From positions 1 through 28,110 of IMG/VR virus record IMGVR_UViG_3300031953_000084: DNA of 28,110 nt; one strand, written 5' to 3'. Every line of letters starts with the position of its first letter. Positions within the stretch are counted from its first letter, which is position 1. The notes under the pieces are model-generated. The model was not told the origin of the DNA, ran no database searches, and saw nothing but the letters and a program-made list of their open reading frames with translations. Origin of the DNA: a virus (Duplodnaviria > Caudoviricetes). Positions 3,443-12,747 of the stretch are shown here, in pieces. Made by a program: the position numbers and the translations under genes.

Positions 3443-3469
3443 GCGAAACAATTGGCCGAAAGGGCGAAA

Positions 3470-4192
3470 ATGGAATTGAAAGTTTTGATTGGCTGCGAAC
3501 AATCCGGCGTTGTGCGCGATGCCTTTGCAGCCCTTGGGCATGACGCTTGGTCGTGCGACCTGTTGCCCGGTGAAACCCCAAGCAACCGGCACATCATTGG
3601 AGACGTGCGCGAGGTGATGCTATGGCAAGAATGGGATATAGTTGCAGTAATGCACCCGCCATGCACCCGGCTCTGCAATTCCGGCGTGCGATGGCTCAAC
3701 GAACCACCAAAGAACCCGCCCGCCGATTGCACCGCCAGCGAGGCCGAGATTTGGCCAACCCTTTCGCGCGCCGCAAAACTGGAAATGATCTGGCGGCACC
3801 TTGAGGCCGGTGCCGCGCTGTTTTCCGATTGCTGGAACGTGCCGCACATTCCACACATAGCGATTGAAAACCCGGTGATGCACCGCCACGCGAAAGCCCG
3901 GATCAAGAATTTCAAGCCGCACGCCGACAGCTTTCAACCTTGGCATTTCGGCACGGATGAGGACGGCCCCGACAATGAGAAAAAACGCACCCTGCTTTGG
4001 CTACGCAACCTGCCCGCACTGATCCACACCGGAACGCTTGACGGATCAACCGCGCGCGATAGTGTTCACAAGGCCAGCCCCGGCGCAGACCGTTGGCGCG
4101 AGCGCAGCCGATTTTTTCCCGGCGCAGCTCAGGCGATGGCGGCGCAATGGTCCGATCACGCCATCAATTGCGCTCAGGCCCGCGCCGCCTGA
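3470..4192 (+). CDS. Phage DNA (cytosine-5) methyltransferase-like protein
   Basis: Variant motif I (IGCEQSG), motif IV HPPC, motif VI IENP, KRT motif; recognisable small phage MTase-like family. Confidence 0.75.
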   Translation: MELKVLIGCEQSGVVRDAFAALGHDAWSCDLLPGETPSNRHIIGDVREVMLWQEWDIVAVMHPPCTRLCNSGVRWLNEPPKNPPADCTASEAEIWPTLSRAAKLEMIWRHLEAGAALFSDCWNVPHIPHIAIENPVMHRHAKARIKNFKPHADSFQPWHFGTDEDGPDNEKKRTLLWLRNLPALIHTGTLDGSTARDSVHKASPGADRWRERSRFFPGAAQAMAAQWSDHAINCAQARAA

Positions 4193-4220
4193 GTATCCGC
4201 ACCGGCGCGAGCGTCAAGAG

Positions 4221-4253
4221 AGGCCCCGGCGAGATCAGCGCCGGGGCCTTTTT
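4221..4253 (+). terminator. Intrinsic terminator
   Basis: 11-bp stem AGGCCCCGGCG/CGCCGGGGCCT, 7-nt loop, T-tract; follows MTase gene. Confidence 0.8.
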
Positions 4254-4257
4254 GTTG

Positions 4258-4452
4258 TCACCCGATTGCGGGGCGCGCCATGCCCGCCGCCGCAGGTGAC
4301 GGGCATGGCGCGACGGAGCGCTCAGCTCGCCGGTGAGTCGCGCCATGCCAATCAGGCAACACATGGCCCGCAAGGCAGGCCATGATGATCAGCGCGCTCA
4401 AATGATCGCGCCGCCGCATCTTTGGGCGGCAGGGATGGCGGAGCCGGATCAT
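4258..4452 (-). CDS. Possible small hypothetical protein
   Basis: 64 aa; ATGA overlap with 4449-4742; runs through strong inverted repeats, so uncertain. Confidence 0.3.
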   Translation of the reverse strand: MIRLRHPCRPKMRRRDHLSALIIMACLAGHVLPDWHGATHRRAERSVAPCPSPAAAGMARPAIG

Positions 4453-4742
4453 TGCAACAGCTTTCCGACCGACCTTAAAAGCCGTTCGAAGTTATTCCAG
4501 AACAAGACAAGCACCGACAGAACGGCACCGGCACCAAGGATGAGGCCGCGCCAGTGCGCCCAAAACAGGCCCTTAGCTTCCTCATAGCGCGCGATGCAAA
4601 CCAGCGTCTCACTGTGGCTGAGGATCGCGCGAATTTTTTCAATCTCATCGGGCTCAAGCTTGGCATAATCGGCACCAAGAGCGGCTTGCAGCTTGGCGAG
4701 GACGGCAAGAATTTGGACATCCGCCGGGGAATGATCGGGCAC
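4449..4742 (-). CDS. Small single-pass membrane protein (holin-like or exclusion-like)
   Basis: 97 aa; GTG start with AAGGA SD; one C-terminal hydrophobic segment GLILGAGAVLSVLVLFW. Confidence 0.7.
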   Translation of the reverse strand: MPDHSPADVQILAVLAKLQAALGADYAKLEPDEIEKIRAILSHSETLVCIARYEEAKGLFWAHWRGLILGAGAVLSVLVLFWNNFERLLRSVGKLLQ

Positions 4743-4838
4743 GTTGTTTTTCCTTTCACGCCAGGGCAGCGCCCCGGTTTAAGTGCCAGAGCGCGCCGCA
4801 GCACCCTCATCTTTTTTGTATTGTGCAAAACAGATTAG

Positions 4839-4867
4839 TTGAATGTCACCCTTAAAGGTTAGATAAG
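4839..4867 (+). promoter_or_regulatory. Putative promoter with operator CACCCTTAAAGGTT (4847-4860) in the spacer
   Basis: TTGAAT at 4839-4844; 12/14 match to operator palindrome; upstream of sprT-like gene. Confidence 0.6.
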
Positions 4868-4915
4868 GATTGCGGAAGCCGGGCGCAGCGCCCGCCAACG
4901 CAAAGGATCGCACCC

Positions 4916-5716
4916 ATGACCAGCACCGGCCACAACCTGCCCGAAACGCCAACCGCAGAAACCTATGGCGCGCTTGATGCCGCCTATGATTTTTTCAATG
5001 AGCGGCTATTTGGGGGCCGGTTGATGCCTTGCCTTTTTGTGATGCAGCGCAGCAAGCCAACCCGGGGCGGGCACTTTCACGCGGAAATCTGGCAAAGCCA
5101 AACCGTCAATGATTATGCCGCCGATGAGATCGCCATCAATCCCAATCAGATGATGAGCGCGGGCCTGCAAGAGAACATGCAAACGCTCGCGCATGAAATG
5201 TGCCACCTTGAGCAACACCATTTTGGCAAGCCCTCGCGCAACGGATACCACAACAAAGAATGGGGTGCGATGATGGACAAGATCGGCCTCACGCCATCGA
5301 ACACCGGCGCGCCGGGCGGCAAGCGCACCGGGCAGCAAATGGCAGATTTCATTGAGCCCGGCGGGGCGTTTGAGGCCGGACTTGCCGAGCTGATTGATAG
5401 CGGCTTTTCGATACCTTGGCTTTCCATTGACACAACGCCGCCGCCCAAAGAAGCCAAGCCGTCCACGCGCGCGAAATTCACCTGCGTTGGATGCAGCTCA
5501 AACGCTTGGGGCAAGCCAGAGCTGCGCATCCATTGCGCCGATTGCAGCTTGCCAATGATCCCCTCAACCGCTGAGCCTGAGGACGCCGCCGCGATGTTGA
5601 GCGGATACATGAAGCCCGATCAGATCGCGCAGGCTCTTGGCCTCAGCGTCAAAGAGGCCAAGAGCAACACAGCGCAGATAGACGTTGAGGAATACATTGC
5701 GGGGGCGGCGGCTTGA
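4916..5716 (+). CDS. SprT-like zinc metalloprotease with C-terminal Zn ribbon
   Basis: HEMCH (HExxH) plus GYHNKEW third ligand; CVGC...CADC. Confidence 0.85.
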   Translation: MTSTGHNLPETPTAETYGALDAAYDFFNERLFGGRLMPCLFVMQRSKPTRGGHFHAEIWQSQTVNDYAADEIAINPNQMMSAGLQENMQTLAHEMCHLEQHHFGKPSRNGYHNKEWGAMMDKIGLTPSNTGAPGGKRTGQQMADFIEPGGAFEAGLAELIDSGFSIPWLSIDTTPPPKEAKPSTRAKFTCVGCSSNAWGKPELRIHCADCSLPMIPSTAEPEDAAAMLSGYMKPDQIAQALGLSVKEAKSNTAQIDVEEYIAGAAA

Positions 5717-5725
5717 GCCGCCACC
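5704..5725. repeat. Imperfect palindrome spanning a stop codon (copy 2)
   Basis: GGCGGCGGCTTGAGCCGCCACC; near-identical to 3421-3442. Confidence 0.8.
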
Positions 5726-5834
5726 CCCGAGCCCAAGAGCGGCGCACGAGACAATCCGTGCAAAATCCGTGCAGTGAGCTGCCGAAAACAGTGCAGGTTA
5801 TTGATTTTTAAGGAAATAACGACACAATCAAACT

Positions 5835-5882
5835 CCCCTCCTAAGGGGCAGGTTAGTGGTTCGAATCCACTCGGGGTCACCA
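5835..5882 (+). tRNA. 3' half of tRNA-Arg(CCT), att core (not a complete tRNA)
   Basis: Anticodon loop CTCCTAA (CCT 5840-5842), T-arm AGTGG-TTCGAAT-CCACT, 3' acceptor strand ending CCA; no D-arm or 5' acceptor strand upstream. Confidence 0.85.
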
Positions 5883-5938
5883 CCCAACACCCTTGAAAAC
5901 AAAGACTTTAAAGCCGGTTTTCAGGGTGCCCCGCGCCG

Positions 5939-5952
5939 CACCTTTAAATGCG
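5939..5952. promoter_or_regulatory. Operator-like site inside attP
   Basis: CACCTTTAAATGCG, 12/14 match to CACCTTTAAAGGTG. Confidence 0.5.
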
Positions 5953-6058
5953 TTTGACCGCATTTGCGTGTGAAGTGCTGCCAATTGCACGCAAAATCCG
6001 TGCAAAATCCGTGCAGTCTGTTCCGGCCCTGTTCCGGGCTCAGCTCAAATGATCGCGC

Positions 6059-6613
6059 TCATCCATGCCGCGCGAAAGCATCAGACAGCATCAGGCGCTC
6101 ACGGATTTCAGCGATCAGCGCCGCCACCTCGCCGGGCAGAGCATCCGCCGCGCCGTTGTTATCAATCACCCAATCCGCATCACCGGCGCACAATTCCATT
6201 GAGCCGCCGGGCTCAGGCGGCAGGCGATCCGAGGCATCCACCCAAACCACAAGATCAAAAAGCGCGCGTGATCGCTCAAATTCAGCCCGCGAGCGCATCC
6301 CGGTGTAAATGTCATGCGCCTCAAGGATTTGCTCAGCAAGCATCGGGCCGGGGCGCAGGTTATAGGCCCGGATCGCGTGAAACCAGAGATCGCGGTGCGC
6401 GTGGCGATCCTCATAGGCCGCGCGCCAATCGGGATAGAGATCAGCGACAAGCGGAAAAACCGAGTGCTGCGCGGCAAACTCAGAGCTTGACACGCTGCGC
6501 AAGCCGTGGCGCGCGCGCAGCAAATCGCCAACGCTATCCTTGCCGTGCCGCCCGTGCCCGATGATCAACAGCCGACAGGCACCGGCAAGGCTCAGCTCAG
6601 AATTTTCCACCAC
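6059..6613 (-). CDS. P-loop kinase, deoxynucleoside monophosphate kinase-like
   Basis: LLIIGHGRHGKD Walker A of the GKD type; TGMR..E, VVWVDA and IDNNG motifs; GTG start at 6613 or 6610 overlapping HD gene end. Confidence 0.75.
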   Translation of the reverse strand: MVENSELSLAGACRLLIIGHGRHGKDSVGDLLRARHGLRSVSSSEFAAQHSVFPLVADLYPDWRAAYEDRHAHRDLWFHAIRAYNLRPGPMLAEQILEAHDIYTGMRSRAEFERSRALFDLVVWVDASDRLPPEPGGSMELCAGDADWVIDNNGAADALPGEVAALIAEIRERLMLSDAFARHG

Positions 6614-7226
6614 AAACCCCCGCAACAATCTCATCAAATTTCGCGCGATGCCCCAAGCGCACGGCAGCGGCGCGCAGGCGCGCAAACATGGCCCGCCAAT
6701 CATCGCGAGCCGCAACGTGTTGAGGGCAATGCGTGACCGCCCAAAGATAGGCATCAAGCCCATCGCACAAGCTCAGCAAGGCGGCGTGATCCGCGCGCAA
6801 TGCCGGAAAGCGCAGGCCCATTTCGCTCAGGGCCTCAGCCTCAAGCGCAGCAAGCGCGGCATAGAGGGCGGGGTTGCGCCACTTGACCGGCGATGCGAGA
6901 TCGCCAACCGCATTCTCGCCCAAGTCATGCGTGATCGCGGCGCGCAACAGCTCAACCGGGGCATCAGGCATAAATTGCAAAATAAGGACCGCCACCCGTG
7001 CAGAGTGACCATCAACCCGATCCCGCGTTGCCGCATAGATCGGGTTGGTATGCCAACGGTGCGTTGATCCCGCGAGCCAAGGCGAGGGTGCGCGGGCAGG
7101 CGCAGGCCCCGCCACACCGGGACAGATCACGGAGAGGGCGCGCAACGCGAGCCGTAAGGCCCAAGCGTACCATTTGCGCGCAAGCATGGCGCACACCGCC
7201 TGCCGCGCGTAAATCATCAGGCTCAT
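6597..7226 (-). CDS. HD-domain phosphohydrolase (YfbR/DatZ-like)
   Basis: RWHT...GHS...THDLGE..VGD..SPVK...CDGLD pattern. Confidence 0.85.
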   Translation of the reverse strand: MSLMIYARQAVCAMLARKWYAWALRLALRALSVICPGVAGPAPARAPSPWLAGSTHRWHTNPIYAATRDRVDGHSARVAVLILQFMPDAPVELLRAAITHDLGENAVGDLASPVKWRNPALYAALAALEAEALSEMGLRFPALRADHAALLSLCDGLDAYLWAVTHCPQHVAARDDWRAMFARLRAAAVRLGHRAKFDEIVAGVCGGKF

Positions 7227-7271
7227 GGGGCCATCCTTTCAAGTTTCAATAATTGAGAGAGAGGTGCGCGC

Positions 7272-8954
7272 TCAGGCGCGCCAGCGCGCATCAGGCGTTT
7301 GCGTGATCAGCGTGCGCTTGCCGTTGGCATAGGCAACAACGTGTGATCGCTGCCAGCTCGACGGGCTGTTATTATAGCCCTGATCAAGATCGCCCGACAT
7401 CCCGGCGATATAAACCCCGTCCAGAATTTGCGGCGAGTGCTTGTCAGCAATCGTGAGGCGCGTGCCCATCTTGGAAAGCCCAACCGCAGTGCCGCGCGAG
7501 CCGTTGGGGCCCTGATGCCCGTGCATCCCGCACTCAATGCCGCCGCTATCTTGGCAGATCACAAATGAGCCGCCCATTGGCACAAAATCAATGCCCTCAA
7601 GCTCGCGAGCATCCTCATTCTTGAGGGCCCAACGGCAAAGGTTGAACCCCTCAGAGCCCTCGCGGATCGACCGCAACAGGGCAAGATTGCACTCATGCCA
7701 ATATTCTGCGTTTGGCGTATCCATCCGGTCAGCATCACGCCGCGCCCACTGCATGAGCCGATCATCATGATTGCTTTCAATCATCACCGTGCGGCAGGTT
7801 TCGCGCTCAAGCGCGCGCAGGAACTTTGCACCCTCACGCACTTGCCAGCGGATCCCGGAATGACCGGCGGCATTCATCCGGGCGCGATGGATCGGATCAC
7901 CATCAACATGCCGGGACGCCATTTCAAATGACATCAGATCGTGAATAAATTGGTACTCAGGCCGCAAGGCATCCATCAGGCTCGCCTCATGTCGCCCCCA
8001 TAACGCTTCAAAGACATCAGGCCCGAGGCTTGGGATGTGAATGTCGCCAAAGGTGATCGCCTTGACGCGGTTGCCCGAGCTGATCCGCCCGGCGCGCACG
8101 ATGGTATCAAGGTCTTGAAATGCGCCATCAGCGGTTGCCGAAATCTGCCGACACCATGCGCCGCCCGTATCATCTGCCTCAACAAGCGTGGCACCCAAGA
8201 CGTGATGAAACTCAGCCTTGAGCCCGGCCTTTTTCTTCACATAGTTTGGCACCGTGCAAGCGCCCGTTGTCATGACCGATGGCACGAACTTGCCGGGCAT
8301 CGCAGGCACGCTTTCAAACGCAAGCTTGGCGTGAGGAAAGACCGCCGTGCGGCCCTGAGCATAGGTTGTCAGACCGCTCAGCGGGCGCACCGCCGTTGGC
8401 AGGGTATTCATTTCAGCGCAGAACACCACCGGCCCGCAATCCATCGGCTCAAAGCGCAGATGCGGCAGCACCTCGCGCGCAAACTGCGCGGTGCGGGTTT
8501 GATGGTCGGTATAGAGCGCGTGATTGTAAGTGAAGCCGCCAACAACAACCTCAGCGCCAACGTGCCGGGCATAGGCTTGCAGGTTTGACCAAAACCGCAA
8601 ATGCACATCGGTATCATCTTGGGCGGCGGTTAAAATCCAGCGCCGCACCTCGCCGCGCCGGATCGCGGCGGCGGGCGCGCCGGGCCGGGCGAAAAGGCCC
8701 CAATCGGGCATGAAATGATCATCGCCGCGCGCCTCAGCGGCGGCTTGCGTCTTGAGAAAGGCGCGCACCATGCGCTCAGTTGTTTCATAGCCGGTGAGAG
8801 ACACCCGGCGCGCCGCCTCAGGCACGCAAGAGCCCTTGCCGCCACGGGGATCACGGAACGGATCAAAGCCATCCCTCAGCGCCGCCTCAAGGGCATCCTT
8901 GAGGCGCTGCGCGCGGGCCGGGTCCTGCGCCCCGGTCTTGCGTCTATTTTTCAT
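7272..8954 (-). CDS. T5 A1-like protein, calcineurin-like metallophosphoesterase
   Basis: ILTAAQ, FTYN, LPTAVRPLSG, TTGACT.PNY.KKKAG.KAEFHH blocks recalled from the A1 family; metal motifs GDIH, HD, SNHD, MHGH, DKH. Confidence 0.8.
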   Translation of the reverse strand: MKNRRKTGAQDPARAQRLKDALEAALRDGFDPFRDPRGGKGSCVPEAARRVSLTGYETTERMVRAFLKTQAAAEARGDDHFMPDWGLFARPGAPAAAIRRGEVRRWILTAAQDDTDVHLRFWSNLQAYARHVGAEVVVGGFTYNHALYTDHQTRTAQFAREVLPHLRFEPMDCGPVVFCAEMNTLPTAVRPLSGLTTYAQGRTAVFPHAKLAFESVPAMPGKFVPSVMTTGACTVPNYVKKKAGLKAEFHHVLGATLVEADDTGGAWCRQISATADGAFQDLDTIVRAGRISSGNRVKAITFGDIHIPSLGPDVFEALWGRHEASLMDALRPEYQFIHDLMSFEMASRHVDGDPIHRARMNAAGHSGIRWQVREGAKFLRALERETCRTVMIESNHDDRLMQWARRDADRMDTPNAEYWHECNLALLRSIREGSEGFNLCRWALKNEDARELEGIDFVPMGGSFVICQDSGGIECGMHGHQGPNGSRGTAVGLSKMGTRLTIADKHSPQILDGVYIAGMSGDLDQGYNNSPSSWQRSHVVAYANGKRTLITQTPDARWRA

Positions 8955-9214
8955 TTTGGGGCTTGCCTTTTCTGATCTTTCAAGCGCCGGATTTGGTCAT
9001 AAAATTGCGAGGCATCCGTTAGGGCCTCGACAATGACCGCAGAGCGCGGGGCAGCATCTATTTCAACCGCAAGGGATCGCTTGAAATCTGCCGTATATGA
9101 GGGCGGCGCAGGCACCGCCGTTGCGTCAAAGACAGCCCGGCCCGGCTCGCCGCAGGCACTCAACAAACTCAGAGCTGCTAGGGCGAGGCCCCGGCGCGGA
9201 TCGCAAAATTGCAT
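8951..9214 (-). CDS. Outer-membrane spanin (Rz1-like lipoprotein)
   Basis: Signal peptide with lipobox LSAC; overlaps 3' end of i-spanin. Confidence 0.8.
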   Translation of the reverse strand: MQFCDPRRGLALAALSLLSACGEPGRAVFDATAVPAPPSYTADFKRSLAVEIDAAPRSAVIVEALTDASQFYDQIRRLKDQKRQAPK

Positions 9215-9404
9215 CTCTCACCTCTTGCGCTTGCTGCGCGTCTAGCTCGCGGCGCACCTCAGCCGCCGCATCGGCGCGCTCGCGCGCCACAAAGGCCAGC
9301 GCGGCACCGCCAAGGGCGAGAACCAACACCACCAACAAAAACGCCCGCCGGATTACAGGGCGGGCGCTCAGGGCGCGCAGGGCGATGAACGCAGCGCCAA
9401 TCAT
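9126..9404 (-). CDS. Inner-membrane spanin (Rz-like)
   Basis: N-terminal TM segment, helical periplasmic part, two C-terminal Cys; ATGA-coupled to endolysin. Confidence 0.75.
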   Translation of the reverse strand: MIGAAFIALRALSARPVIRRAFLLVVLVLALGGAALAFVARERADAAAEVRRELDAQQAQEVRDAILRSAPGPRPSSSEFVECLRRAGPGCL

Positions 9405-10138
9405 TGCCGCGCCGGGCGACTCATGCCGGCCGATTTCAGCGAGTCCACACAAAGCCGATGCTCAGCCTTGCGGCGGTTGCTCAATCCGGCCACCACGCGC
9501 CCGCCCGCCCTATTCCAGCGCAACAGCTCATCGCAGGCCCCAAAGAGATCGCCCGCGTTTGCCCGGCGAACCAAAGTTGAACCGCAGGCCGCGCCGGTGC
9601 CGACATTATAGGACCAACTCAAAAACGCCGTTGCGGCACCCTCAGGCAAATCAGCCTTAAGGCACTTGCCGAGCCCGGCAGCATAGGCGTGCAGCTCGCG
9701 CTCAAGCATCTGATCACATTCCGCTTTGGTGTAGCTATCACCGCGCTCAATGCCCTTGGTTTCGCCATAGCAAACCGTCCAAACGCCGACGACATCCTGA
9801 TAAGCCTTTGTGCGTAAACCTTCCCACTGCCCTACAAGGGCAATCGACGCCGCGAGGGCACCCGCCGCAGCGATCCCGATGGTGCGCTGCCTGAGAAAAA
9901 GCGCGCCACTTTCATCCTTGATAAAATCGCCAATATTCTGTTGCAGGATGCGAGCGAGAGGCCCGACAACCGCCACCAAAATCACAAGCGAATTATAGGC
10001 CATAGGCGGAAGCCCCAAAGCGTCATGCCCGAATTTCGAAAGCAACACCTCAGCTCCGGTGATCAAAGCGATCAGAGCAAACAACCACACCGACCAAGAG
10101 CCGGTGAGCAACACACGCCAGTTTTCTACAAATTTCAT
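9401..10138 (-). CDS. Endolysin (GH24 lysozyme) with N-terminal two-TM holin-like domain and SAR-like segment
   Basis: Catalytic E-x8-D-x5-T (WEGLRTKAYQDVVGVWT), YNVG, GLSNRR.AE; ATG at 10138 with GAGGA SD. Confidence 0.9.
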   Translation of the reverse strand: MKFVENWRVLLTGSWSVWLFALIALITGAEVLLSKFGHDALGLPPMAYNSLVILVAVVGPLARILQQNIGDFIKDESGALFLRQRTIGIAAAGALAASIALVGQWEGLRTKAYQDVVGVWTVCYGETKGIERGDSYTKAECDQMLERELHAYAAGLGKCLKADLPEGAATAFLSWSYNVGTGAACGSTLVRRANAGDLFGACDELLRWNRAGGRVVAGLSNRRKAEHRLCVDSLKSAGMSRPARQ

Positions 10139-10151
10139 GTTTGATTTCCTC

Positions 10152-10181
10152 AAAAGAAAAGGGCCCGCACAAAGGCGAGCC
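10152..10181 (-). terminator. Intrinsic terminator just upstream of the lysis cassette
   Basis: Minus strand GGCTCGC-CTTTGT-GCGGGCC followed by CTTTTCTTTT. Confidence 0.55.
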
Positions 10182-10491
10182 GATCTATGCGCGAGCCGTT
10201 ACCGCTCCACCACGCCCGGCGAGAGGCGCGCTGGAGCGGCTTTAGCTATGGGTTTTGTAGTGGTATTGGCCAGCCAGACGATCACGACCCGCGCCCGGCA
10301 CGCTTCGCAGTAATAGGCACCATGGCGGCAACCTATTAGTCCCTCAGAAACAGGCAGACACACACCACCTCATGCAGCGGTTTGCGATCTCCGGACATAA
10401 GACGTCCTTGTGTTTGAGGTGCGGTCAATGCGTGACTGGGTTGGGTTAGCCGCGCGGGGTGGCGTGCGCCAGCCTTGCCCCGTCGCGCTTG

Positions 10492-12747
10492 TCAGGCCGA
10501 TCCATCCGCAAACGTACTGACCTGCGCCCAATAGCTTATGGTCAGCGCAAGATCGGCGGTGCCGCTGGTCAGGTCGCTCACCTTCAAGTCAACGAGGATC
10601 GCGCTCGGGGTGTTCTTGCGGAATTTCAGAATAGGACTGAAGATATTAGTTCGGACAGTGAGATACGAGCCAAACGCGATATTTTCCGCCTCAACTCCCG
10701 AGAACACAATGGACGGCCCTCCATTCCGGTGTAGGAATGGCAATCCGCGCAAGTAAATAGCATTGCCCGGCGTCATCCCCGTTGTGTCAATATTAACAAT
10801 CCGGCATGTCGCTGTAACGAGGCCCCCAATACCTAATGGTCGCATGGTGCCAGCGTCGTAGATCATCTCGCGGCGGGCATTATAAAGCGCCGACGTGCTG
10901 GTTGCGGTGGCGACGTTTCCGGCGGTTACAGCGTCTGCCAGTACCGGGGACCATGATCCGTCAACCGTATAGCCGGGGCACTCGTGGATCGCGGACAGCG
11001 CCTCTGCCGCCATGCCCTCGCCCATAACAACGAGGCCGCGCCCAGTGTAGTGTGCGCCTGAGCCGACCGGCAGCTTGTCCGCAGGGACGTAACGCAGCGT
11101 CGGCCATGTATTGCGGCTGTCGAGCATAACCTCGCGGTGATACTGCCGGAATGGCTTGTTGGACGGCGTGTCGAGCAAGGCCCCGGCAACGATGGTCGTT
11201 TCCTCCCCCTCAATCAGCCCCGCCGCCGAGAGGTCGCCCAGAACGCCGGTTACGAACTTGTTGCGATATACGGCGGCAGTATCCGCAGTATTTGCCTCGC
11301 CCTGCATCCAGAGCATTGCATCCGCTACGGCTGGCGAGCCAGGAATTGCCGCCAGCGCATTGGCAATGCCGGGATACATATAGGTTGTCAGATCGGTGAA
11401 TGTTCCGCCGAGCGTCCAACTGTTTGCCGTGAGGGTCGCAGGTTTGATGAATGCCTCAATAGGATGCGCGCCTTTGGCGTAGAGGATCAGATAAACCGGA
11501 CGCCCGGTCATTTCATTTGCCCGGCGGGCAGCGGCATAGGCCATGTTATTGGCGTATTCTCCGACTCCCGCGTTGTATGTGTCGAGTGGATATTCTCCCA
11601 CAACCGGCTGCGTATAGGCCGAGCCTACTGCGGTTTCGTTGCCGTTCCAAACGAAGATGGGCAGGGGTGTGCTCATATCGCCGCCCGTGCTGGACTCGTT
11701 GCTGCGCATATTGGACTGGCCGAGGGCGAGCATCACAAAGGGACGCCGTTGCGCCACCTGCGCCGCCGCCGCTTCGGCATCCAGCGCCGCCTGCGCAGCC
11801 CCCGCTTCGGCATCCAGCGCCGCCTGCGCCGCCGCTTCGGCATACAGCACCGCCTGCGACAGCGCCACGGCGTCAAGCGCGCCCTCAATCGACGCGGCCT
11901 CGGTCACGTCAAGGATTTGCATCTGCGCGATTGCGTCTGACTTGTCCTCGCCGTACGACCGGACATACTGTCGGACGTAAACGGTGTCAGCCAGCATCGC
12001 ATCAACATTCCCCAGCGGCGGCGTACCCACCGAGAAGGTATAGGCTGCCCGGATGATGCCGGTGGTCACAGATGGCGTGCGGTCGCTAAGAACGGTGTTG
12101 CCAATGGCGGAGTAATCCTCCCCCAACCGCGCGAGACCAAAGCGCATCCCTGCGCCGGAAATATCCGCAGTGTTCACGACGCGACGCGCGACGAAGTAGG
12201 CGAGATAGACGCGGCCCGGGTGGACTGGGAACGCCTCGCGCCGCGAGATGGTCCGGTCGGCTGCGGTGATGATCGCGCACTCGCCCAGCCCCGCGACGCT
12301 GCCCGAGGTGATCGCGGGATCTCCATCAAGCCCCGTCAGTGCGCCCGGGGCACCAGCGGTCGCCGTCACCCACGCGGCCATTGCACGGCCTGGTCGGTTG
12401 CCATCTGATGCAGCCCCAGCGCCCCCCGGCTGGACCGCCGTGTCGGCCTTGGCCCCCTGCGCTGTGGTGGCAAAAGTGGCGTCCAAAGCATCCAGAGCGG
12501 CCAGCACCGCATCCGTCATAGGTAGTTTTGCCAGATCAGCCAACGCCAACGCCCCTGCGGCTGCGCTGTCCTTGATTGCTATCTTATCTGCCCGCACTGG
12601 CGCGCCCTTGACTGGTGCGGTGCCTATTGCGGCCGTGACACGGGGCAGGGTCACGGCGGCCTCAATAGCCGAATTTATAGCAGCTTCAAGCTGGCCCTTA
12701 GTGGCGACCTTTAGGTTGGTGCCGGATGTTGGAAGTGTAAAAGCCAT
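10492..12747 (-). CDS. Tail fibre/spike with SGNH (sialate O-acetylesterase/CE6-like) domain
   Basis: Position after tail-tip gene; LGQSNM, AKGA, WMQGEAN and GAHY motifs. Confidence 0.85.
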   Translation of the reverse strand: MAFTLPTSGTNLKVATKGQLEAAINSAIEAAVTLPRVTAAIGTAPVKGAPVRADKIAIKDSAAAGALALADLAKLPMTDAVLAALDALDATFATTAQGAKADTAVQPGGAGAASDGNRPGRAMAAWVTATAGAPGALTGLDGDPAITSGSVAGLGECAIITAADRTISRREAFPVHPGRVYLAYFVARRVVNTADISGAGMRFGLARLGEDYSAIGNTVLSDRTPSVTTGIIRAAYTFSVGTPPLGNVDAMLADTVYVRQYVRSYGEDKSDAIAQMQILDVTEAASIEGALDAVALSQAVLYAEAAAQAALDAEAGAAQAALDAEAAAAQVAQRRPFVMLALGQSNMRSNESSTGGDMSTPLPIFVWNGNETAVGSAYTQPVVGEYPLDTYNAGVGEYANNMAYAAARRANEMTGRPVYLILYAKGAHPIEAFIKPATLTANSWTLGGTFTDLTTYMYPGIANALAAIPGSPAVADAMLWMQGEANTADTAAVYRNKFVTGVLGDLSAAGLIEGEETTIVAGALLDTPSNKPFRQYHREVMLDSRNTWPTLRYVPADKLPVGSGAHYTGRGLVVMGEGMAAEALSAIHECPGYTVDGSWSPVLADAVTAGNVATATSTSALYNARREMIYDAGTMRPLGIGGLVTATCRIVNIDTTGMTPGNAIYLRGLPFLHRNGGPSIVFSGVEAENIAFGSYLTVRTNIFSPILKFRKNTPSAILVDLKVSDLTSGTADLALTISYWAQVSTFADGSA
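11769..11858. repeat. Three tandem 30-33-bp coding repeats (AQAALDAEA-like)
   Basis: Unit CCGCTTCGGCATCCAGCGCCGCCTGCGC at 11769, 11802 and a degenerate copy at 11832. Confidence 0.85.

Follow-up and report, generated by a model that had tools for sequence, protein, structure and literature searches.

Introduction

According to the available part of a recent preprint, the A1 protein of phage T5 is necessary and sufficient for the breakdown of chromosomal DNA in vivo (bioRxiv 10.64898/2026.04.02.716235), and a mycobacteriophage metallophosphoesterase is described as a DNase in vitro in the accessible sections of another study (PMC12287305). Homologues of A1 outside T5 have already been noted in phiCbK, KASIA, Lacusarx, R5C and Pan1, as far as the excerpted literature goes, and one article, available in excerpt, predicts that A1 orthologues are phosphodiesterases directed against signals (PMC7824862). 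Here, we analysed an A1-family gene in the virus record IMGVR_UViG_3300031953_000084, a stretch of 28,110 bases (hereafter the window) beyond which there is no further genome. The gene stands at the end of a late operon together with genes for a YfbR/DatZ-like HD phosphohydrolase and a deoxynucleoside monophosphate (dNMP) kinase-like protein, and comparison with related loci revealed that A1 and the kinase form the conserved core of a late-operon cassette.

Results

Three genes close the late operon of a temperate phage

The phage is a temperate, lambda-like phage of Rhodobacteraceae, and the three genes close its late operon just before the phage attachment site attP (Table 1). Pfam and PHROG scans placed the lambda-like late operon, with its terminase, portal, protease-capsid, tail and endolysin genes, on the minus strand, and an integrase fragment, an HNH gene, a methyltransferase-family gene and a SprT-like gene on the plus strand. 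The nearest relatives are Rhodobacteraceae prophages, whose A1 proteins are 87–92% identical to that of the window, and DNA near-identical to the window is present in brine metagenome runs, two of which may be where it came from.

The initial annotation had described a block of three co-oriented genes that is coupled to the lysis genes and ends at attP, and this layout was confirmed. All three genes are intact on the minus strand, where it had placed them; the ATG of A1 overlaps the stop codon of the o-spanin-like gene as ATGA (8951–8954), the HD gene follows after a gap of 45 nt with a Shine-Dalgarno-like AAAGGA ahead of it, and the GTG start of the kinase gene falls 14–17 nt inside the end of the HD gene. 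The protein identities held as well (phrog_1745, E 2e-154, for A1; PF12917 YfbR-like, E 1.3e-7, above the cut-off, for HD; phrog_139 dNMP kinase, E 3.6e-9, for the kinase), as did the late-operon position and the recurrence of cassette genes behind lysis genes in other phages. All three genes are under purifying selection, with ratios of nonsynonymous to synonymous substitution (dN/dS) against four relatives of 0.065–0.078 for A1, 0.17–0.36 for HD and 0.13–0.29 for the kinase, values that are approximate at a dS of 0.6–1.4.

The conserved unit is a nuclease-plus-kinase cassette

A1, the kinase and HD each served as queries for the collection of loci. The kinases that shared 50% identity or more with that of the window formed 30 clusters; six with less than 1.5 kb upstream were dropped, including the trio-bearing L011, and 24 were kept, including the window. 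[quoted passage not shown] Across the relatives, the middle slot holds HD, DUF7220, SSB or nothing, and loci whose A1s are 97–98% identical carry HD (L014), DUF7220 (L005) or nothing (L007) in that place. The unit is a dispensable nuclease-plus-kinase cassette in which the middle gene is variable, and its conserved core consists of A1, a PolD-DP1/Mre11-type metallophosphoesterase, and the dNMP kinase-like protein. The fixed trio envisaged initially was not found, with HD in five of the 24 kinase loci and kinase and HD together in two of the 65 A1 loci described below.

The A1-kinase pair is not obligate: the nuclease is missing from some loci, and another metallophosphoesterase can take its place. 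In L116, a different helix-turn-helix (HTH) metallophosphoesterase (phrog_704; 6043–7284) stands in for A1 ahead of DUF7220, SSB and kinase genes; because the two proteins share no profile similarity, we treated them as non-orthologous. Unrelated kinases also occupy the kinase position, since a second phrog_139 subfamily is found behind A1 in L041, L144, L083, L098 and L106 and, with SSB in between, in cultured RcCronus. The place of A1 is held in L121 (5761–7206) and L168 (2692–4206) by a protein of 481–504 amino acids (aa) with no Pfam or PHROG match, and A1 is frameshifted in L008 (6719–6762) and split in L087 and L126.

Starting from A1, we found 85 loci, 78 of which had a usable gene call and 65 of which were left at 95% identity. 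The neighbourhood was taken as four genes upstream and three downstream, with labels only from clusters of two or more. The context consisted of lysis or virion genes in 25 loci, replication genes in 14 and both in 3, and 23 were unlabelled; an HD enzyme was present in 11. In the clade of the window A1 (FastTree support 1.0, midpoint root), 23 of the other 30 members are in a late context, 7 are unlabelled and none is in a replication context. A co-oriented DNA methyltransferase gene accompanies A1 in 12 of the 65 loci; it could offer a route to self-protection, and many phages carry genes of this kind.

G002, a complete prophage that carries all three genes, encodes a repressor as well as SSB and primase, the latter two in a separate early module. 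Among the 27 G002 proteins scanned, which left out a few small open reading frames (ORFs) and recognisable structural genes, polymerase, PurZ, MazZ, thymidylate synthase and all other base-modifying families were missing, and this absence speaks against a modified base; Pfam and PHROG scans of 32 window proteins were likewise negative for PurZ, polymerase, thymidylate synthase and other base-modifying families. The earlier argument that opposing kinase and phosphatase activities in one operon suggest a non-canonical substrate fails, because the kinase usually occurs without HD, because T5 encodes both activities on ordinary DNA and because this complete relative shows no base-modification genes.

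The A1-family protein

Judged by its sequence, the window protein can be placed in the T5 A1 family, since it shows homology across the body and a metallophosphoesterase domain with metal-binding motifs. It is 36% identical to T5 A1 over residues 92–550 (173/481 identities; E 2e-91) and consists of an N-terminal helical part, a middle alpha/beta domain to which no fold was assigned and a C-terminal calcineurin-like metallophosphoesterase domain (293–560). Residues D304, H306, D339, N395, H396, H478 and H506 are invariant in 94 of 94 aligned homologues, comprising the window protein and 93 of the 120 homologues listed.

The AlphaFold 2 (AF2) model has a predicted local distance difference test score (pLDDT) of 92. 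Its top structural match in VIA-align was the PolD DP1 exonuclease (Z 12.7, root-mean-square deviation 3.4, 201 residues aligned), followed by YfcE, LpxH, SbcD (Z 11.4) and Mre11 (Z 10.8), whereas a Foldseek search of the model returned nothing at E 0.001 or better, and the sequence had no Pfam match and no PDB sequence match. The modelled fold fits a nuclease without proving one, because the top matches mix PolD DP1, SbcD and Mre11 with YfcE and LpxH. We also considered the middle domain as a second, degenerate phosphoesterase and rejected this, with a probability of 0.3% in a profile comparison of the two halves; an Atlas search with the middle domain found unnamed viral clusters only.

The kinase-like protein

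The kinase starts at a GTG at 6613 or 6610, and a 234-aa ORF from 6763 was rejected as over-extended. The AF2 model (pLDDT 94) has an NMP-kinase fold with a P-loop. Compared with this model, the T4 dNMP kinase (1dek) reaches a Foldseek E of 2e-4 and a Z of 11.2 and phosphomevalonate kinase a Z of 12.2, so that the T4 enzyme is tied with other small-molecule kinases; Pfam DNMK did not match at E 1. The window kinase and T4 gp1 have in common a P-loop ending in GKD and the NMP-kinase fold, but the window protein is shorter (183 versus 241 aa), is 14–16% identical and is structurally tied with dephospho-CoA and phosphomevalonate kinases. In close records of N4-like and of RDJL-type roseophages, the kinase match falls in genes annotated as thymidylate synthase or MazG-like, a fusion context that favours nucleotide substrates.

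The HD protein

The profile of the HD protein matched DatZ best among solved structures (1e-5) and then YfbR (1e-4), and the scores for DatZ, oxetanocin-like and YfbR proteins were close together. Residues R57, H74, H100, D101, E104, D109 and D155 are kept in at least 90% of 35 homologues; with a correspondence to YfbR residues that is in part our assumption, the protein appears to have the full R...H...HD..E...D...D set of YfbR/DatZ-like phosphohydrolases. An N-terminal extension of ~40 aa (7105–7226, minus strand) is hydrophobic, basic, poorly conserved and missing in several relatives. The window protein shares the HD motif set and the profile match with E. coli YfbR and cyanophage S-2L DatZ but differs from both by this extra segment, and a purZ/mazZ context was not found here, neither purZ nor mazZ of the Z-genome set (PurZ/MazZ/DatZ) being present among the scanned G002 proteins. 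Outside the close clade, neither A1 nor the kinase is nearby in 50 of 53 loci of HD relatives.

Lysis genes and timing of expression

The o-spanin-like gene upstream of A1 is conserved in the same place in relatives and had no lysis-family match in the Pfam and PHROG scans. A hairpin scan of the window gave 14 sites compared with 8.6 ± 2.9 in shuffles, which is weak alone. By eye, a similar hairpin with a T-run stands ahead of the endolysin gene in six of the six relatives printed (L005, L006, L007, L013, L014 and L156), and in the window and these relatives it lies ~15–25 bases before the endolysin start. Such a hairpin would gate the lysis genes and the cassette. A promoter scan yielded 3 sites compared with 1.9 ± 1.4 by chance and no credible internal promoter; a candidate near HD was rejected because it overlaps the HD start codon, and an Rfam search over 4000–11000 found nothing real. 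The cassette is thus most simply read as transcribed late, by read-through, and a toxic nuclease would in that way stay off in the lysogen.

The initial annotation had called this timing unexpected for nucleotide salvage. However, being expressed late is not the same as acting at lysis. In lambdoid phages, transcription of the late operon precedes holin triggering by a long time, during which replication goes on, so salvage at a late stage is not paradoxical.

Just ahead of the late operon of G002 lies a gene for a 250-aa protein (L228 12689–13441), a candidate late regulator with no Pfam or PHROG match, for which an Atlas search gave DUF6456 as the only lead (12% of one cluster; TM 0.41). We do not claim that it is an antiterminator, the DUF6456 lead being weak and the term DUF6456 being absent from the accessible text of the GafZ anti-termination paper (PMC11150451).

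Table 1. Features of the window between attP and the start of the lysis genes.
Feature	Position	Strand	Basis and remarks
T5 A1-family protein, predicted DNase	7272..8954	-	560 aa; phrog_1745, fold, motifs
YfbR/DatZ-like HD phosphohydrolase, optional cassette member	6597..7226	-	209 aa; PF12917
dNMP kinase-like P-loop protein, last late-operon gene	6059..6613	-	183–184 aa; phrog_139
att core, tRNA-Arg(CCT) 3' half	5835..5882	+	48 bp identity to host tRNA
Left tandem arm-type repeat	5752..5775	+	putative integrase arm site
Right tandem arm-type repeat	5994..6017	+	putative arm site
o-spanin-like lipoprotein	8951..9214	-	lipobox-like LSAC, position in relatives; name putative
i-spanin-like small membrane protein	9126..9404	-	position and hydrophobic N-terminus; putative
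Endolysin (phage lysozyme), N-terminal DUF7940 membrane part	9401..10138	-	PF00959 E 1e-42; PF25612 E 5e-10
Terminator-like hairpin plus U-tract, immediately upstream of the lysis cassette	10152..10181	-	hairpin scan

The attachment site and neighbouring genes

The att core begins ~176 bases past the kinase stop codon. Of 201 Rhodobacteraceae-family genomes searched, two (G096 and G137) have a tRNA-Arg(CCT) whose 3' half is identical to the core, and ten match it with at most two mismatches; ARAGORN detected no whole tRNA in the window. A tandem 11-mer on either side of the core occurs four times compared with 0.7 expected, and none of 100 shuffles reached four. Contigs from the brine runs that contain near-identical DNA diverge precisely at 5835 and 5882. 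Because a tRNA 3' half, arm repeats on both sides and contig divergence at the core ends coincide, the site is the attP of a tyrosine integrase at a tRNA, as the initial annotation had stated.

In relatives, the kinase gene is likewise followed by a tRNA gene (Thr, Ser, Arg or Gln), in either orientation (L005, L006, L007, L011, L014, L022, L156, L158, L159, L161, L163, L165, L168 and L173); these varied ends among close relatives suggest that integration modules are swapped beside the kinase gene. The integrase gene (9–602) lies ~5.2 kb from attP with the HNH, methyltransferase (3452–4192) and SprT-like genes between, and G002 has the same layout. The SprT-like protease gene (4916–5716, plus strand) adjoins attP on the side away from the cassette, next to a small divergent membrane-protein gene (4449–4742, minus strand), and the two are also conserved in G002. 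The gene for the tail fibre or spike (10492–12747, minus strand) encodes a sialate O-acetylesterase-like domain (PF03629) and was unmatched in the loci of close relatives that were searched.

Discussion

A proposed late role in host DNA degradation

The explanation that we prefer, and to which we give somewhat less than an even chance, is that A1 would degrade the host chromosome late in infection, the kinase would return the resulting dNMPs to phage replication and the HD enzyme would be an optional pool cleaner; activity, substrate, timing and self-protection are what we infer here. The cassette would be read together with the lysis genes past the terminator, which would leave a toxic nuclease silent in the lysogen. 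In the late phase, A1 would act as a DNase on the host chromosome, like T5 A1, and the kinase would convert dNMPs to deoxynucleoside diphosphates (dNDPs), with host kinases finishing the conversion so that phage DNA replication could continue. Where present, the HD enzyme would trim or clean the pool of surplus, damaged or non-canonical dNMPs or deoxynucleoside triphosphates (dNTPs). Phage DNA would escape A1, perhaps by packaging, by methylation or by targeting through the N-terminal domain. We favour this mechanism because T5 A1 causes DNA loss in vivo, because a phage metallophosphoesterase is a DNase in vitro and because nuclease and kinase are repeatedly paired; the kept metal-binding motifs and fold matches that include PolD DP1 and the SbcD/Mre11 nucleases support it as well.

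Several points weigh against this explanation. Phage DNA must escape A1, and the same problem exists for T5. T5 moreover dephosphorylates and excretes its DNA breakdown products, with no recycling, according to the available text (bioRxiv 10.64898/2026.04.02.716235). The kinase fold leaves the substrate unfixed, and the first His of what we take to be motif V, a metal ligand, is Asp in 28 of the 94 aligned A1s, including that of the window. With respect to the pairing, in addition to the inflated count noted above, any recognised dNMP kinase was present in just 12 of the 65 A1 loci within the genes examined, and the joint presence of kinase and HD is rarer still; A1 is absent or a stub in L115 and L161, the L121 and L168 protein that takes its place belongs to no recognised family, and close A1s in L038, L040, L046 and L055 have no kinase nearby. 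Finally, in the available sections of the phiCbK and KASIA papers, RNA polymerase was put forward, without experiments, as the target of A1 homologues from phages other than T5.

A1 as a possible virion protein

It is also conceivable, although we consider it unlikely, that A1 is virion cargo: a late product of which a few copies are packaged and enter the next cell together with the DNA. There, it would do a job like that of the T5 pre-early protein (DNA entry, end processing, host DNA damage or blunting of defences) without a pre-early gene, while the kinase and HD would work in the producing cell; this idea is compatible with late host DNA degradation. The accessible supplementary tables of one study (PMC12014285) list R5C gp55, an A1 homologue encoded within the head-tail operon, in CsCl-purified particles at 31.3% coverage and 1.86%, next to 1.84% for the hub and 1.81% for the distal tail protein. 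They also list R4C gp20 (L234 10611–11741) in purified particles at 67.8% coverage and 2.40%; this protein, annotated as a transcriptional regulator, is an HTH-metallophosphoesterase of phrog_704, and its gene occupies the slot of A1 in RcCronus. The replication-module A1s of vB_EliS-L02 and XM05 are absent from their virion tables, giving two of two late-slot enzymes and none of two replication-slot enzymes in virions within the part of that dataset available. Similarly, phiCbK gp126 is not among eight band-excised virion proteins, and in L040 and L046, which belong to the clade of the window, A1 lies inside the virion operon directly ahead of a gene of the 'DNA ejection' family (phrog_598). 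The word 'nuclease' is absent from the main text of PMC12014285.

Against packaging, this is one study with two positives, neither of which comes from the clade of the window. In the portions of its tables available, the R5C helicase (0.81%) and the R4C integrase (1.79%) are probably carry-over, and ratios such as 0.01% for the R4C tail tube are implausible, a sign of poor quantitation (PMC12014285); an abundant late DNA-binding protein may therefore co-purify. A cryo-electron microscopy paper on R4C puts the number of structural proteins at 12, and its searched passages and supplements make no mention of gp20. The injection of a potent DNase conflicts with lysogeny, and the phrog_704 relative that is closest among cultured phages is encoded on the other strand from its late genes, which speaks against both cargo and generality. 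A broader version, which we regard as somewhat unlikely, is that many temperate and small phages make a Mre11/PolD-type nuclease (A1 or an interchangeable phrog_704 protein) late and package it, so that a T5-like enzyme for host takeover or anti-defence would reach the next cell before any phage gene expression, with the kinase and an optional nucleotidase managing the freed nucleotides. Packaging of the nuclease would mean that published virion proteomes already contain a widespread class of injected enzymes that has gone unremarked.

Other explanations

An improbable alternative is that A1 serves as an accessory nuclease of replication or recombination on phage DNA, in proofreading, end resection or branch clearing before packaging, with SSB and kinase as ordinary replication helpers placed at the late operon's end. 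The ranking of fold matches (the PolD proofreading subunit first, then Mre11/SbcD), the 14 of 65 A1 loci in a helicase, primase or polymerase context and the SSB gene within the cassette in nine of 24 loci would agree with this role. However, G002 keeps its SSB and primase genes in the separate early module and has no polymerase, no Rad50/SbcC partner was seen in the annotated neighbourhoods, and T5 A1 alone destroys chromosomal DNA, at least as the preprint excerpt has it.

We consider it quite improbable that the cassette acts in counter-defence, with A1 as a phosphodiesterase of cyclic-nucleotide signals and HD and kinase buffering dNTP depletion or damaged nucleotides. Such a function has been predicted for A1 orthologues in the accessible text of PMC7824862, the patchy loss and replacement of genes would fit a role in conflict, and mycobacteriophage Gp48 silences defence genes through DNA damage according to the excerpted report (PMC12287305). 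Late expression, however, follows the firing of most defences unless the protein is packaged, and the T5 A1 data in vivo, in the part of the preprint available, point to DNA. PADLOC matched none of the four window proteins submitted, its models covering defence rather than counter-defence.

That the genes are unrelated passengers from an att-proximal insertion hotspot, with no common function, would explain the fast turnover of the middle slot and the unrelated 481–504-aa gene in the place of A1, but it is very improbable in view of translational coupling, purifying selection and the fact that two nuclease families and two kinase subfamilies are paired again and again. The weakest proposal, that the three proteins together produce or edit a modified nucleotide destined for phage DNA in a dZ-like pathway, can draw on DatZ as the best PDB match of the HD profile and on dATP/dGTP pyrophosphohydrolases behind the nuclease in L097, L103, L145 and R4C, but it is most improbable given 19 of 24 kinase loci without HD and no base-modifying family among the scanned G002 and window proteins.

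Significance and comparison with known systems

That T5 A1 drives the destruction of host DNA is a very recent finding. In the late-operon A1 clade of temperate phages, the enzyme is uncoupled from two-step injection and apparently from A2. It is carried by small inducible prophages and by the cultured phage RcCronus, where timing, self-protection and nucleotide fate are accessible to deletion tests. If it is true that temperate Roseobacter-type phages recycle the host chromosome, this would bear on the phosphorus economy of marine and brine infections and on the amount of host DNA that survives for transduction. In the open-access literature (subscription papers were not covered), we found no paper on an A1-kinase cassette behind lysis genes or on a virion-packaged A1.

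T5 and the window share homologous A1 proteins with metallophosphoesterase motifs and a deoxynucleotide phosphatase gene nearby. In T5, A1 lies in the terminal repeat, is pre-early (first-step transfer) and works with A2 in a virulent phage that excretes the products, whereas the window A1, coupled to the spanin-like stop codon, ends the late operon of an integrating phage and adjoins a kinase, with an optional HD enzyme as the phosphatase. PHROG scans of the window and G002 proteins gave no A2-labelled family, although no search directed at A2 was made and the window is partial. Mycobacteriophage A10ZJ24 Gp48, as described in the accessible sections, belongs to the same superfamily and degrades host DNA but is expressed early and acts as a single gene.

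The replication-module A1s of phiCbK, KASIA, Lacusarx, XM05, L02, RHEph09 and ParMal1 are also found beside HD dNMP phosphatases, methyltransferases or kinases. In XM05, genes for a dNMP phosphatase, a dCMP deaminase, a methyltransferase, A1 and a protein annotated 'kinase' stand between helicase and polymerase; in RHEph09, A1 is followed by a dNMP phosphatase, and in ParMal1 it adjoins a kinase of the family of the window. These A1s differ from that of the window in lying between helicase and polymerase genes, where expression is presumably early or middle, and those checked are absent from virion proteome lists.

A cultured counterpart is RcCronus (Cronusvirus), a small, predicted-temperate Rhodobacter phage in which gp22–24, an A1-like protein, SSB and a phrog_139 dNMP kinase, close the structural operon after the tail genes; gene 22 is given as having no known function in the consulted part of a comparative paper (PMC8601537). 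RcCronus differs from the window in its A1 clade (38% identity), its kinase subfamily, the lack of HD and an endolysin gene located elsewhere. R4C carries a phrog_704 nuclease gene and then a dATP/dGTP pyrophosphohydrolase gene in the slot of the cassette. Set against these systems, the window contains a late-operon form of a known host-takeover enzyme that is paired with a kinase.

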